Source: a virus (taxonomy: Duplodnaviria > Heunggongvirae > Uroviricota > Caudoviricetes). Taken from it: 48,684 bases of DNA. The stretch lies in IMG/VR virus record IMGVR_UViG_2923302340_000001. The stretch is one strand, 5' to 3'. The notes beneath the pieces are model-generated. The model was not told where the DNA came from. It did not search any database and worked only from the letters and a program-made list of their open reading frames with translations. This document shows, in pieces, positions 8,655-20,986 of this stretch (position 1 is its first letter; every line of letters starts with the position of its first letter). Position numbers and translations under genes: made by a program.

Positions 8655-9104
8655 TATGCAGCTCTCACAATATAGTTAAATGCAATATTTCTCGGACGGG
8701 TTTCACGCCCACCAGGAATTTGAAAAGCATTAGCGGTTGTAGATCCGCCTTCCTGATTAATTCCTGTTGTATAAATACCACTCACACCATTTTGCAATGC
8801 AAATACTGTTGCGGTTCCAGGCCCACCACCGGGCCCAAAATACTTAAGTTCGAACTTTTTAATATCATCACTCTGAATATTCAATAAAGCACGTCCTGTA
8901 TCAATGCCGCGTCCATCATCCCAGCCACGAATAAACTCACCGCGTAAATCAGGAAGTTTTCCTGACGGGTATGCTTTGGCAAGAGTTGGATATTTCACCT
9001 TATCAAAGGCAGCACCGTTGCATTTCAGCCAGCCCGTTGGAGGGGTTGCGGAGGGCCACGGAACAGGTACACCAACAGGCAGCGCCGAACCTTCCCCAAA
9101 CCAA
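8654..9104 (-). CDS. promoterless alternative tail-fibre C-terminal cassette B
   Basis: Shares a 232-bp direct repeat (8881..9112 vs 9367..9599) including the crossover-like site with cassette A; no ATG; motif KYPTLAKAYPSGKLPDLRGEFIRGWDDGRGID; ends ...RPRNIAFNYIVRAA. Confidence 0.45.
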
Positions 9105-9647: not shown

Positions 9648-10217
9648 ATGCTTTTTATGCAAATTGGCTATATTCGCGTATCAACAAATGACCAGAATAC
9701 AGATTTACAACGTAATGCTCTGAACTGTGCAGGATGTGAGCTGATTTTTGAGGATAAAATCAGTGGAACGAAGTCAGCCAGACCGGGATTGAAAAAACTG
9801 CTCAGAACGTTATCAGAAGGAGACACGCTGGTTGTCTGGAAGCTGGACAGGTTGGGTAGAAGCATGAAACACCTGATCACTCTTATTGAGGAACTACGGG
9901 AAAAAGGTGTTAATTTCCGTAGTCTGACGGACAGCATTGATACATCAACCCCTATGGGGCGTTTCTTTTTTCACGTCATGGGGGCTTTAGCAGAAATGGA
10001 GCGTGAATTAATTGTTGAGAGAACATTGGCTGGACTGGCAGCAGCTCGCGCACAGGGCCGCATTGGTGGGCGCCGCCCGAAGCTGACAAAAGAACAGCAT
10101 GAGCAAATAGCAAGGCTGATTAAAAACGGTCACGAGAGGAAACAACTGGCGATCATTTACGACATTGGTATATCAACGATTTATCGCTATCACCCTGTAG
10201 GAAGTGATTCAGCTTAA
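9648..10217 (+). CDS. DNA invertase, Hin/Gin/Cin/Pin-type serine recombinase
   Basis: N-terminus (M)QIGYIRVSTNDQNTDLQRNAL, ...TLVVWKLDRLGRSMKHL..., ...GRFFFHVMGALAEMERELIVERT..., C-terminal HTH; alternative ATG at 9657. Confidence 0.9.
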   Translation: MLFMQIGYIRVSTNDQNTDLQRNALNCAGCELIFEDKISGTKSARPGLKKLLRTLSEGDTLVVWKLDRLGRSMKHLITLIEELREKGVNFRSLTDSIDTSTPMGRFFFHVMGALAEMERELIVERTLAGLAAARAQGRIGGRRPKLTKEQHEQIARLIKNGHERKQLAIIYDIGISTIYRYHPVGSDSA

Positions 10218-10420
10218 ACAGGAAGATAGTTTTTCCTGCGATGATGCCCTATCTACGCTTTACCGCAGGTTTCCGGCTGGGAATCATTGACTGGAGTTAG
10301 GCCAGTAGTATGATGCTCGCAACACGAGATCCGATTTAGATCCTTTTACTGGTGGATTATCGTTCGATTAGCGAGAGACTTCGTGCATGACCGAAAGTGT
10401 TGTGGTAGAGTTCTCTTAAA

Positions 10421-10435
10421 ACCACGTAACGTGGT
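10421..10435. promoter_or_regulatory. ACCAC-N5-GTGGT palindrome (same motif as cI-cro operators) upstream of replicon
   Basis: ACCACGTAACGTGGT, perfect 5-bp arms with 5-bp spacer. Confidence 0.35.
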
Positions 10436-10475
10436 TACGATTGTGGGTGTCTGGTTGGAAACTGACCAGATATGG

Positions 10476-10600
10476 AAACAAAAAGCCCGCAGATAAATCT
10501 GCGGGCTTCTTGCGACATCCACGGAAAACCAACAAAACAATCCATGGGCGCCTCGACAACTCCCATTATACGTTGGTTTTCCGTGGACGCAAGAGCGAAC
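10476..10600 (-). ncRNA. candidate antisense RNA (CopA-like) opposite the repA leader
   Basis: Minus-strand intrinsic terminator (GCCCGCAG-ATAAAT-CTGCGGGC then T-run, 10476..10506) and 15-bp perfect stem 10519..10533 / 10572..10586 directly upstream of repA start. Confidence 0.3.
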
Positions 10601-10602
10601 AT

Positions 10603-11451
10603 ATGGATAGACCAATGCCGTCTCTACGTTCAGCTTACGTTTGTAATTTGTCGCCGGAGTTCCAGCCTCCAAAGCACCATACGCACAAGCTGCCGCTGGT
10701 GTTATCTGATGCTTTACAGCGCATTTATGGGCGTGATCTTACGTGTGAGGTTGCGTTCTACGTTAATCAACCGTCAGAGCGGAAGCGCCGGATAAACGAG
10801 CATCGTCGTCGGGCGATTAATGCTGTGATTGCTGCGATTTTGCACCATGTAAACATCATTTCTAAGCGGGTTCTGGCCAGTGCTGAGGCGTTGGCTGATT
10901 TTTGCGGCCTGTCTACCGTATCCGAAGCTGGGAACAAATCTATAACGCGCTGTACAAGGGCGTTGTCGCAACTGAAAGCGTTAGGTTTTATTGATTATGA
11001 ACGTCGCTGGGATCGGGTGAATAAACAGTATTGGCCAGCGAAAATAGAGATTCGTGATCAACTGCTGGAAACAGTTGGTATTACTGAACAAGCATGGAGA
11101 CGTGCGGTTAGCCAGAAACTTAATTACTTCAATGCGAAGAATAGCGAACGGCTTAAAAAAGCGATAACGGAGGCTGATTATAAGCGTATTGTTATTCAGG
11201 AGCAGATGGAGAATGTATGGCGTCAGAGGAAGACGGCCAGAGAGATAAAGGCAAAACAGAAAGCAGCGGAGAGAGCTGCGCGTCTTGTTCGGGAAAAGGG
11301 AGAGGCCGAACTTCGTCATCAAATCACTAGAGAGGTTAGCCAGGAATTTGCTGATGGCATGTATCCAGGTGCTGACCTTGCATATTTACGCTCCCTCGTT
11401 GATCAGCGTTATAACAGGCTAAGAAAGACCTGGACATCACTCCAACATTAA
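10603..11451 (+). CDS. repA: replication initiator RepA, IncFII RepA1-like
   Basis: ...RRRAINAVIAAILHH...CGLSTVSEAGNKSITRCTRALSQLKALGFIDYER... resembles RepA1 of IncFII plasmids (recollection); track start 10441 is an in-frame upstream extension; ATG at 10603 or 10615. Confidence 0.7.
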   Translation: MDRPMPSLRSAYVCNLSPEFQPPKHHTHKLPLVLSDALQRIYGRDLTCEVAFYVNQPSERKRRINEHRRRAINAVIAAILHHVNIISKRVLASAEALADFCGLSTVSEAGNKSITRCTRALSQLKALGFIDYERRWDRVNKQYWPAKIEIRDQLLETVGITEQAWRRAVSQKLNYFNAKNSERLKKAITEADYKRIVIQEQMENVWRQRKTAREIKAKQKAAERAARLVREKGEAELRHQITREVSQEFADGMYPGADLAYLRSLVDQRYNRLRKTWTSLQH

Positions 11452-11486: not shown

Positions 11487-11700
11487 TTATCCACGTCGCA
11501 ATAAAATAGCTGTTCAAAAAACAAGCTAAATTAATTTTCTCTAAACCTGAACACAGCGAAAATATCGTCTTTACAGGCATCAACTAATCAAGTTATCCAC
11601 AGTTTTGATATGTATATGCAAATGGTTTTTTATAATAGATGCACTAAACAAATAAATGCAAAATCACTTTCTTTTATTAAAACTTTCTTTATTTAACTTA
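11487..11700. other. putative plasmid origin (oriR-like)
   Basis: DnaA-box-like TTATCCACG (11487..11495) and perfect TTATCCACA (11593..11601) followed by ~100 bp AT-rich DNA, directly downstream of repA. Confidence 0.4.
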
Positions 11701-17683: not shown

Positions 17684-17828
17684 ATGCGCCATGATGATTA
17701 TCGGGGTTCCAATCCCGACCGTAGATTTTGCTACGGCTCGGAAAGTGTCCACCAATGGCGCATTCATGTCAATACGGCGGGATTTTAACAGAGACAACCA
17801 CATAGCGTGGGTTTATTGGTAGGCAGAA

Positions 17829-17857: not shown

Positions 17858-18234
17858 CTTTCGTGCTGATCGGATTCGCGGTCCTTTCAGCATTACGTTG
17901 TTGTATAAATACAACCACGCAAGCACAAACAGCGATCATATTCTTACCCAACTGAATAAAATTGTCCAAATAAATTTGGTTTATTAGAGCACAAAAGCGA
18001 GTGATTTTTGTGGTGTGTATTTAAGTTGATGAAAAACAATATGTTTTTATCCCTTCATTATGAAGGGGCTGCGGTGTAACATTACGCGGGGCCTTTTCGC
18101 CGATTCGCAACCGGGCACCGACTTTCAGGAAAGGATTATCCACTTGCCGTACCACGCAGGCACAAACAGCGTGCTTGCTCTCGCGTCATTTTCGTCGGTG
18201 GGGATGCCGTGAAACGGCCTGTAAGGGCCACACA

Positions 18235-18357
18235 ATGAAAAAATACTACATGTGTATTTTTATCGTTGTTACTGGAGCTTTGTTTACGCCACATGGGGAG
18301 GGTTGGAAGATTACTGATAACGCTCTGAATGTGACGATAAACATTAGCAGCAAGTAG
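18235..18357 (+). CDS. small hydrophobic peptide (40 aa)
   Basis: MKKYYMCIFIVVTGALF...; followed by a strong terminator. Confidence 0.2.
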   Translation: MKKYYMCIFIVVTGALFTPHGEGWKITDNALNVTINISSK

Positions 18358-18362
18358 CGATT

Positions 18363-18386
18363 AGGCCCCTTCGGGGGCTTTTTTTA
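18363..18386 (+). terminator. intrinsic terminator
   Basis: AGGCCCC-TTCG-GGGGC followed by T7. Confidence 0.6.
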
Positions 18387-18856: not shown

Positions 18857-18899
18857 GTGTATCCCCTTTTATATAAATCTATAAAACTATAATTATATA

Positions 18900-19568: not shown

Positions 19569-19574
19569 GTGTTT

Positions 19575-19674
19575 GATTATATAATTCTATAAATCTATAT
19601 TTATAGAATGAGGTAAGCATAACCAACTTTTGAGCGGATGAAAAGCACTTTATATAATTATATAAATCTATAAT
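19575..19674. promoter_or_regulatory. partition-operon promoter with two AT-rich palindromic boxes (candidate centromere/operator)
   Basis: GATTATATAATTCTATAAATCTATATTTATAGAAT (19575..19609) and AAAAGCACTTTATATAATTATATAAATCTATAAT (19641..19674) upstream of parA. Confidence 0.4.
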
Positions 19675-19702
19675 ATGTAAGCGGGCTGGCGCCCGCTTGC
19701 AG

Positions 19703-20077
19703 TCAGAGGTCAGCTATTGTTGATATCAGTTGATTTGCTAGCTGTCGCTGTTTACGTGAGAGGGTTAGAGCAGCTTCTGAGCGGTCGCTAAGAGGGGTGT
19801 TTTCATCGAGAATCATGAGGCATACAGAAATAATAGCCCTGTTATATGCCATCAATGGCTGGCACAGCTTCGATATCGCTGGCACATCGTATTGTAAGGC
19901 CGTTTTGAGGCAGACTTTTTGTTCTGATGCCAGATGAAGGATAGATTCTATCCAGTCGATATCTTTCTCATTATCAATGAGTTGGCATAACATACACTCA
20001 ATCGCTATGTTCAACGCTTGGATTTCGATTCCAGCAGTGATCAGAGTTTCGTTTTTATTGGCTGTATGTAATTCCAT
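19703..20077 (-). CDS. hypothetical protein
   Basis: 124-aa ORF with hairpin GCGGGC-TGGC-GCCCGC just downstream. Confidence 0.3.
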   Translation of the reverse strand: MELHTANKNETLITAGIEIQALNIAIECMLCQLIDNEKDIDWIESILHLASEQKVCLKTALQYDVPAISKLCQPLMAYNRAIISVCLMILDENTPLSDRSEAALTLSRKQRQLANQLISTIADL

Positions 20078-20112: not shown

Positions 20113-20127
20113 ACCACAAAGCGTGGT
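20113..20127. promoter_or_regulatory. ACCACAAAGCGTGGT palindrome downstream of cI (operator-like; could also be a terminator hairpin)
   Basis: Same ACCAC-N5-GTGGT pattern as in the cI/cro intergenic region; followed by T-run on plus strand. Confidence 0.35.
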
Positions 20128-20869: not shown

Positions 20870-20986
20870 ACCACATTTAGTGGTTTTCACACGGCAAGAC
20901 GAGAGCTAGACCACAAATAGAAGGTTATTTTTTGTTTTCCCATTGAAAAACTCACGATTTGTGGTTTTAATACCACATATCGTGGT
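20870..20986. promoter_or_regulatory. cI/cro divergent control region with ACCAC-N5-GTGGT operators
   Basis: Perfect sites 20870..20884 (ACCACATTTAGTGGT) and 20972..20986 (ACCACATATCGTGGT); degenerate sites 20910..20924 and 20951..20965. Confidence 0.45.

Follow-up and report, generated by a model that had tools for sequence, protein, structure and literature searches.

The nearest precedent for the locus described here is found in the phages N15 and phiKO2. Their immunity repressor CB binds three OR operators and, in addition, two OL operators that overlap the promoter of the replication gene repA; CB represses repA and lowers the copy number of the prophage (PMC4997575, PMC4488713). OL is not a target of Cro in phiKO2 or PY54 (PMC4997575, PMC4488713). 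We here describe an operator-like palindrome in front of the repA gene of a phage-plasmid, given by the IMG/VR virus record IMGVR_UViG_2923302340_000001 (Caudoviricetes; 48,684 nucleotides, analysed as a whole and referred to as the window). The window is a 48.7-kb phage-plasmid of the myovirus type, whose modules include an IncFII/L-M-type RepA, a predicted antisense-RNA control region, a switch region formed by the repressor gene cI and the promoter PR, and a P1-like c4-icd-ant module. What it appears to share with N15 and phiKO2 is the presence of immunity repressor operators at both the switch region and the replication gene. Like N15 CB, the CI protein of the window seems to lack the residues for self-cleavage, and an antirepressor module is present. 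The differences are nevertheless considerable. N15 has two adjacent operators on the predicted repA promoter, next to cB, whereas the window has only one, which is separated from cI by about 10 kb and follows the best promoter at a distance of about 100 bp. N15 is linear with telomeres, whereas the window is circular and combines an IncFII/L-M RepA with a predicted antisense control. The RepA of N15 is a large protein of a family other than IncFII RepA. Operator sequence and repressor family of the window are likewise unrelated to those of N15, and the 13 homologues found for CI are not named N15 CB.

A second system for comparison is plasmid R1, in which repA is controlled by a constitutive outer promoter, by an inner promoter PrepA that is repressed by CopB, and by the antisense RNA CopA; transcription of repA is limited there by a trans-acting protein whose binding dyad separates the outer promoter from the antisense gene (PMC5717011). 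The replicon of the window resembles R1 and R100 (IncFII) in the family of its RepA and in the order of its elements, namely a constitutive-looking outer promoter, a dyad, a predicted antisense gene, repA and a probable origin with DnaA boxes. Unlike R1, it has no copB and its dyad matches the phage immunity operators; moreover, an inner promoter equivalent to PrepA is not convincing and the predicted antisense RNA has no CopA match in Rfam. The likeness to N15 and R1 is, in our analysis, one of shared logic and not of membership by homology.

Two further systems are more distant. In P1, the operators of the repressor C1 are dispersed over the genome, including immI, where C1 acts, and the lytic replicon repL. 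It is this lytic replicon that C1 controls; the plasmid replicon (repA with iterons) is not known to be C1-controlled. C1 is not known as a repressor of the HTH_3 or lambda type, and its operators are asymmetric. The window resembles the C1 regulon in its scattered operators, in a c4-icd-ant module with an operator-like site upstream, and in replication that would stand under immunity control, although its only recognisable initiator is a plasmid-type RepA. With lambda CI it has in common inverted repeats of the form 5-N5-5 for a helix-turn-helix dimer, three operators over the divergent cI/PR region, two of them 21 bp apart, and additional distant sites. Lambda, however, integrates and offers CI no plasmid replication gene, whereas the distant site considered here is located in a plasmid replicon.

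The original prediction was that a palindrome of the CI operator type, ACCAC-N5-GTGGT, stands about 170 bp upstream of the repA start and could couple plasmid replication to the immunity repressor. Our favoured reading, to which we assign a probability of roughly 0.58, is of this kind: the palindrome would be an extra CI operator in the transcribed control region of an IncFII-type, antisense-regulated repA, and CI would repress repA. The palindrome itself is read directly from the sequence and fits the pattern (Table 1). Its distance from the gene was also given correctly, as the first in-frame ATG of repA, at 10603, lies 168 bp past its end; the ATG common to all lineages considered below is at 10615. 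It does not, however, stand upstream of the replicon, as had been stated, but inside the replicon module and downstream of the conserved outer promoter.

The genome-wide count that had been proposed as a check places the motif above chance. In the whole window the exact pattern occurs four times (at 10421, 20113, 20870 and 20972) compared to a mean expectation of 0.07, and none of 100 dinucleotide-preserving shuffles reached four copies. If the consensus is extended to AACCAC-N5-GTGGTT, that is, to 12 specified positions including the A/T flanks present at all sites, only the repA site (10420) and the site downstream of cI (20112) match in full, with 0.01 expected, and five sites match at 11 or more positions, with 0.16 expected. 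Scaled from the shuffle result, the chance of an exact copy within the repA control region of about 320 bp is approximately 5e-4. Between the invertase gene (hin) and repA no second copy with at least 10 of the 12 positions exists, hence the palindrome is single. That the motif is a functionless product of chance, a view for which the near-matches in coding DNA can be cited (9 of 10 positions each, at 1902, 5932 and 32770), is barely credible in the face of these expectations, and the motif keeps its place in lineages at 74% DNA identity while its spacer changes.

Conservation was evaluated for 35 loci, which comprise 17 distinct repA leaders in three lineages: the Escherichia type (E), the Salmonella type (S), and a lineage from Citrobacter, Yokenella and other Salmonella (C). 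From the promoter to the antisense terminator, 51 of 92 leader columns (55%) are invariant. Among 16 distinct leaders of the three lineages the longest invariant run is TTAAAACCACG, consisting of the left arm and its flank, and GTGGTTA is the joint third longest. The spacer between the arms reads GTAAC, GTTGT or GATGT, with none of the three central positions invariant; the arms and flanks never change, and the position of the palindrome inside the repA leader is fixed to the base in all lineages. The same combination of fixed arms and free spacer is found at each operator of the immunity region in every lineage.

Invariant arms could also belong to a nucleic-acid structure, either a leader hairpin or a weak back-up terminator for leftward transcription, whose likeness to an operator would then be coincidental. 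The leader is indeed a series of hairpins; as RNA the arms of the palindrome pair at -7.0 to -8.2 kcal/mol, its loop varies and its stem is kept, and a terminator-like hairpin with a T-run was flagged on the minus strand (10439-10425). However, hairpin HP-b, the antisense terminator and the long sense hairpin (2-3 double changes) all show compensatory changes over the same divergence, whereas the arms of the palindrome show none. Because these adjacent hairpins vary by compensation, the invariance of the arms argues for recognition of the sequence and not for pairing alone. In addition, a hairpin has no reason to bear a 12/12 operator consensus, ACCAC and GTGGT with AA and TT flanks included, which is expected 0.01 times per genome. 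The flagged minus-strand pairing relies on an Escherichia-specific spacer and is lost elsewhere, and the main antisense terminator is very strong. We therefore regard a purely structural role as distinctly improbable; the pattern of conservation points to a sequence-specific protein site rather than a hairpin. The narrower proposal of an intrinsic terminator was rejected, as the stem is weak (-7 to -8 kcal/mol), the flagged match is specific to one lineage, and the A/T flanks are common to all operators.

The other copies of the motif are associated with the immunity region. Here the original prediction counted four copies in the cI/cro intergenic region, where we find two exact ones (20870 and 20972, O3 and O1), one with two mismatches (20951, O2) and one half-site (~20909); the single exact copy reported downstream of cI is confirmed at 20113. 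The half-site, at ~20909-20925 between O3 and O2, consists of AACCAC and then GAAGGT-like bases; all lineages retain it, and it may be a weak fourth operator. The best promoter between cI and the rightward operon is PR (TTGAAA-17-TTTAAT, 20943-20971; score 9.4 with a simple sigma-70 matrix, 99.991th percentile); a stricter promoter tool does not call it, because its -10 element carries a T at position 2. The first gene product of this operon has 164 aa and no family assignment. The arrangement of O1 to O3 is the lambdoid layout. The copy at 20113 has the spacers AAAGC, AAATC, GAAAC, GTAAC, GATTC and GCAAC across the lineages, with invariant arms and diverged flanks. It is flanked by a hairpin just past the cI stop codon, which has a T-run in other lineages, and by orf124 (19703-20077; phrog_7632, a family of unknown function); no convincing promoter was found around it.

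Residues 1-75 of CI, including the helix-turn-helix, are nearly invariant, and its homologues are 61-67% identical overall; the contigs fetched for five of these homologues are members of the phage-plasmid family described here. The near invariance of this part matches the invariant half-sites at all operators in all lineages. The C-terminal domain of CI matches Peptidase_S24 with an E-value of 0.028, which does not reach the threshold, and by eye the C-terminal half reads LMSPTI and GRVV where cleavable repressors have their catalytic Ser and Lys. This suggests that CI is a non-cleavable repressor that is induced via the antirepressor. Since the S24 signal is faint and the catalytic residues appear to be lacking, induction through an antirepressor is likely.

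One further operator-like site, matching 9 of 10 positions, precedes the isrK-C4-icd-ant operon. In the Citrobacter-type lineage a 9/10 site is found at the same 24-nt distance from the -35 element, although the intervening sequence differs (L032: 11779-11793; L040: 13287-13301); the site is absent in the Salmonella-type lineage. The spacing shared by two lineages with differing intervening sequence argues that scattered copies of the motif persist at sites of regulation, and suggests that CI also acts on the antirepressor operon. An extended -10 element of the TGn type, TGTTAAAAT (TGGTAGATT in the other lineage), is located 9-11 nt downstream of this site.

Phage N15 carries dispersed centromere palindromes, and the motif might likewise serve as a set of centromere sites for a ParB-like protein; the copy at 20113 does lie in the general neighbourhood of the par genes. 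However, the par locus has 8-bp repeat arrays of its own, directly upstream of parA (19569-19674) and of the following gene of 82 aa (18869-18899), and for this reason the partition proteins are unlikely to bind the palindrome. The repeat units are TTATATAA, TTCTATAA and ATCTATAA and probably represent centromere/operator sites of type Ib. Furthermore, orf124, which comes after the 20113 site, is cut off from parA by an inverted-repeat hairpin (19676-19701), and three copies of the motif overlap elements of the PR and cI promoters in the classical operator layout. A centromere function is thus very improbable, and we rejected it on account of the separate arrays.

Within the replicon, the outer promoter is the only strong and conserved plus-strand promoter upstream of repA. 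It has a position weight matrix (PWM) score of 12.9 (99.999th percentile) and is kept, as TATCAT, in lineages E, S and C. Homology between variants begins exactly at CATTGACT, at the -35 element of this promoter, and the DNA further upstream is unrelated; the promoter therefore marks the edge of the replicon module, and the palindrome travels with the replicon and not with the adjoining invertase gene. In one assembly (Logan SRR10151556, L039) the -35 element is replaced by a junction with a tail-tube gene, which points to either a deletion derivative or an assembly error; should the junction be real, repA must be transcribed from elsewhere. Relative to the predicted start, the palindrome occupies approximately +100 to +114, with the promoter elements some 107-134 bp upstream of it. 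Two Dam GATC sites (10328-10331 and 10339-10342; GATCC...GATCC) fall, at a spacing of 11 bp, within the initial 25 nt of the predicted leader. The pair is kept in three lineages, the bases between them vary, and it might tie repA transcription to methylation after replication. The short open reading frame (ORF) 10387-10419 (10 codons, MTESVVVEFS*), which stops 1 nt before the palindrome, is probably untranslated and was dropped; its ATG lies one codon off in the Salmonella-type lineage, and the Citrobacter-type lineage has ATT in its place. No copB-like gene was found between the outer promoter and repA, where apart from this 10-aa frame the ORFs are unconserved, match no family and are at most 37 aa long.

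The direction of transcription across the leader can be read from hairpin HP-b. In six variants of different sequence HP-b folds at -12.4 to -15.6 kcal/mol on the plus strand and at -6.0 to -7.0 kcal/mol on the minus strand, where it is less stable because G.U pairs become A.C. Since it is stable solely as sense RNA, a sense transcript should cross 10447-10473, which places a repA promoter at or upstream of the palindrome. A protein bound at the palindrome would then obstruct the transcription of repA. Directly abutting the palindrome, GTGGT is followed by the hexamer TACGAT (TATGAT in most relatives), in the same register as the -10 element of PR relative to O2. This candidate inner promoter has a poor -35 element in lineages E and S, and its hexamer is TATGAA or TAAGAA in other lineages; it is possible but unsupported.

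Taken together, we consider the operator reading of the palindrome well supported in silico. We infer that CI is the binder, that its binding represses repA, and that repA is derepressed on induction. In the plasmid-prophage state, a CI dimer on the palindrome would reduce repA transcription, as a roadblock to RNA polymerase arriving from the outer promoter, and might also occlude the weak inner promoter that abuts the operator. The site is located about 100 bp past the start of the strong promoter, hence a roadblock or occlusion of the weak inner promoter is proposed and not classical promoter occlusion. The antisense RNA would provide the fine control of copy number. Upon inactivation of CI, probably by the antirepressor of the c4-icd-ant module, repA would be derepressed, and the same origin could then amplify the genome for lytic growth.

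A number of observations weigh against this interpretation. The palindrome does not overlap the strong promoter, a position about 100 bp past a start is less usual for a phage repressor, and the site is single, not one of a cooperative pair. The inner promoter candidate is weak and varies between lineages, with a PWM score of 1.0 in the Salmonella type, where it is not conserved, and of 4.1-6.3 elsewhere. In RNA, moreover, the invariant arms would pair into a modest hairpin (-7 to -8 kcal/mol). A check for covariation between repressor and site, carried out across the CI homologues, found the same helix-turn-helix and the same half-sites throughout, and such a check is powerless in this family, where both are all alike. 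Finally, a natural 32-kb derivative, pCREC-544_3 (NZ_CP024829), is without cI and has also lost the partition and lysis genes and the early operon. It retains the structural genes and the ant module as well as the replicon, in which the palindrome is unchanged. CI is therefore dispensable for replication, which is compatible with a negative regulator and lends no positive support; the unchanged palindrome in this plasmid says nothing about selection. The control of repA by CI as originally predicted is thus supported in part. Each computational test that might have overturned the operator reading favoured it, namely the motif statistics, the conservation footprint, the nearly invariant helix-turn-helix and the separate repeats of the par locus, and N15 and phiKO2 provide an experimental precedent. 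The regulatory part, that CI binds the site and alters repA expression, is a prediction, and the lack of overlap with a strong promoter weighs against it.

The single site away from the strong promoter could also suit another use by the same family of proteins. In lambdoid switches repressor and Cro usually share operators, and a Cro-like lytic repressor could bind here and shut off plasmid-mode replication during lytic growth; yet the Cro proteins of phiKO2 and PY54 do not bind the repA operators. Alternatively, the site could be a distant CI anchor or sink, for instance as a partner for looping to the immunity region at 10 kb distance or as a means to titrate CI against copy number, and its perfect consensus probably confers the high affinity that an anchor would have; a closer auxiliary site for looping nevertheless exists at 20113. 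For both versions, the position fixed to the base within the repA leader of all lineages argues for a local role, and we consider them unlikely. Returning to the repression of repA by CI, a more far-reaching version can be offered only tentatively: CI may have replaced CopB in an IncFII-type replicon, so that one repressor, acting on dispersed operators of high affinity, governs the lysis-lysogeny switch, the antirepressor operon and the replication initiator, the last by a roadblock in the transcribed leader and not by occlusion of a promoter, with an origin that would be low-copy in lysogeny and lytic without CI.

Table 1. Positions of the palindrome, the replicon elements and the immunity-region features in the window.
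Feature	Position	Strand	Description
Operator-like palindrome ACCACGTAACGTGGT	10421-10435		Read directly; matches 12/12 positions of the extended consensus; arms and flanks invariant in three lineages
Conserved core including flanks, TTAAAACCACG-N4-GTGGTTA	10416-10437		
Outer repA promoter, TTGACT-16-TATGAT	10287-10314	+	10/12 match; predicted start near 10321
Leader hairpin HP-b	10447-10473	+	Fold kept, sequence not; 5/28 columns invariant
Predicted CopA-like antisense RNA, ~80 nt	10476-10558	-	Stem-loop I and terminator hairpin 10482-10513, followed by a U-run
Long sense hairpin in the repA leader, presumed antisense target	10514-10592	+	Invariant loop; 2-3 pairs kept by double changes
repA, IncFII/IncL-M initiator	10603-11451	+	PF02387, E = 1e-43; NF040977 RepA_IncFII_LM
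Probable origin	11487-11700		By sequence: DnaA boxes TTATCCACG (11487-11495) and TTATCCACA (11593-11601), then an AT-rich stretch
Operator-like site of the ant operon, CCCACGCTATGTGGT on the minus strand	17797-17811		9/10 match; upstream of the isrK-C4-icd-ant operon, with 24 nt between its end and the TTGACA
Operator copy downstream of cI	20113-20127		Between the cI stop codon and the orf124 start; 12/12 consensus
cI-type repressor, 220 aa	20170-20832	-	N-terminal HTH_3, E = 4.6e-11
O3, ACCACATTTAGTGGT	20870-20884		38 bp upstream of the cI start codon
O2, CTCACGATTTGTGGT	20951-20965		Two mismatches (CTCAC...GTGGT); occupies the PR spacer; 21 bp from O1, centre to centre
O1, ACCACATATCGTGGT	20972-20986		At the PR start; arms kept, spacer changed in other lineages

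The predicted antisense RNA of the replicon has a promoter TTGCGT-16-TATAAT (-10 element at 10570-10565; score 10.8, 99.997th percentile). Its fold comprises two stem-loops, with z = -6.8, or z = -10.8 if a longer version is taken, and its terminator stem shows a compensatory swap from A-U to G-C. Neither CopA nor any other replication-control family of Rfam matches it at gathering or relaxed thresholds. The antisense promoter sits within the invariant loop of the sense-strand hairpin (10476-10592 region). RepA scores 231 bits against NF040977 (cut-off 70) and 78.7 bits against the strict IncFII equivalog TIGR03474 (cut-off 446.9), which makes it a distant member. In IncFII plasmids oriR is located downstream of repA, the same placement as that of the probable origin here. 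No other replication initiator, helicase or loader was recognised in 24 other ORFs scanned or in the annotation of a relative. Among the products of the early operon are a Ref nuclease and a resolvase-like protein with DUF1064; another, with DUF3560, partially matches a 'primase' PHROG. As no other initiator is recognisable, RepA may also be needed for lytic replication, for which its repression in lysogeny would have to be lifted.

The assignment of the window to the phage-plasmids is based on its relatives. According to BLAST searches of phage and plasmid collections, its kin are non-mobilizable Escherichia plasmids of 46-52 kb. To this family belong the 48.5-kb plasmid carried by E. coli ATCC 25922, one plasmid of Klebsiella aerogenes and three Yersinia pestis myophages (vB_YpM_39/41/44); members occur in Salmonella, Citrobacter, Klebsiella and Yokenella and among Yersinia phages. 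Three Salmonella plasmids are diverged relatives with 74% identity in the repA region and 69% in the immunity region. The annotation of one relative lists a complete contractile-tail phage gene set with an invertible tail-fibre segment, together with repA, a ParA-type partition gene, a RelE/ParE toxin-antitoxin pair, a helix-turn-helix repressor and an ORF6N/Rha antirepressor. Of 5,426 complete E. coli genomes, 70 carry the replicon, every time on a plasmid. It is the joint presence of phage genes with repA and partition genes in the relative, and the plasmid location in all 70 genomes, that identifies the element as a phage-plasmid. We found no paper that describes this family, nor could the paper on HQ103 be connected with it, and PLSDB contains no close non-phage relative. 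Among the matches listed in a spread sample, the next-best plasmid RepA is 37% identical and belongs to an ordinary resistance plasmid without the motif. Neither the RepA alignment nor the conserved terminator sequence gave a hit when genome contigs were scanned, and scans of metagenomes and viral sequences returned solely members of the same lineages. A match to the ryfA RNA family is located between the partition genes and the immI module (18087-18385, plus strand, 135 bits); ryfA loci often encode small toxins.

The invertase gene (9648-10217) ends about 200 bp from the palindrome and is unlike that of the closest relatives. It matches P1-like and P2-like phages at 80-87%, and the 98% homology to the closest relatives begins only at 10236. 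As this homology starts only past the invertase gene, the tail-fibre/invertase module and the replicon meet at a recombination joint. Given its neighbour, the palindrome might be taken for a hix- or gix-like recombination site, and its left flank TCTCTTAAAACC does resemble the hix half-site TTCTTGAAAACC. The half-sites are, however, 9 bp apart here, compared to the 2-bp core of AAACC-NN-GGTTT; the only core matches in the window, with one mismatch each, lie at 9098 and 9585, and none lies at 10421. In addition, it is the replicon block and not the invertase that the palindrome goes with, and it is retained in variants whose upstream DNA is unrelated. We give this possibility next to no weight and rejected it because of the half-site separation and the missing core match.

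Phage-plasmids have to reconcile two replication regimes, namely stable low copy number as a plasmid and runaway copying as a virus. Control of plasmid copying by an immunity repressor is already known for N15, and here it probably acts on a different type of replicon. If CI does control repA, immunity control of replication would have arisen independently on a replicon quite unlike that of N15, and the phage-plasmid would offer a simple model, built of a single operator, a single repressor and a single antisense RNA, of how copy number is coupled with induction and superinfection immunity. In R1, excess CopB blocks establishment at the replication step (PMC5717011). By the same token, a resident prophage of the family described here would be predicted to block the establishment of an incoming relative at the step of replication.

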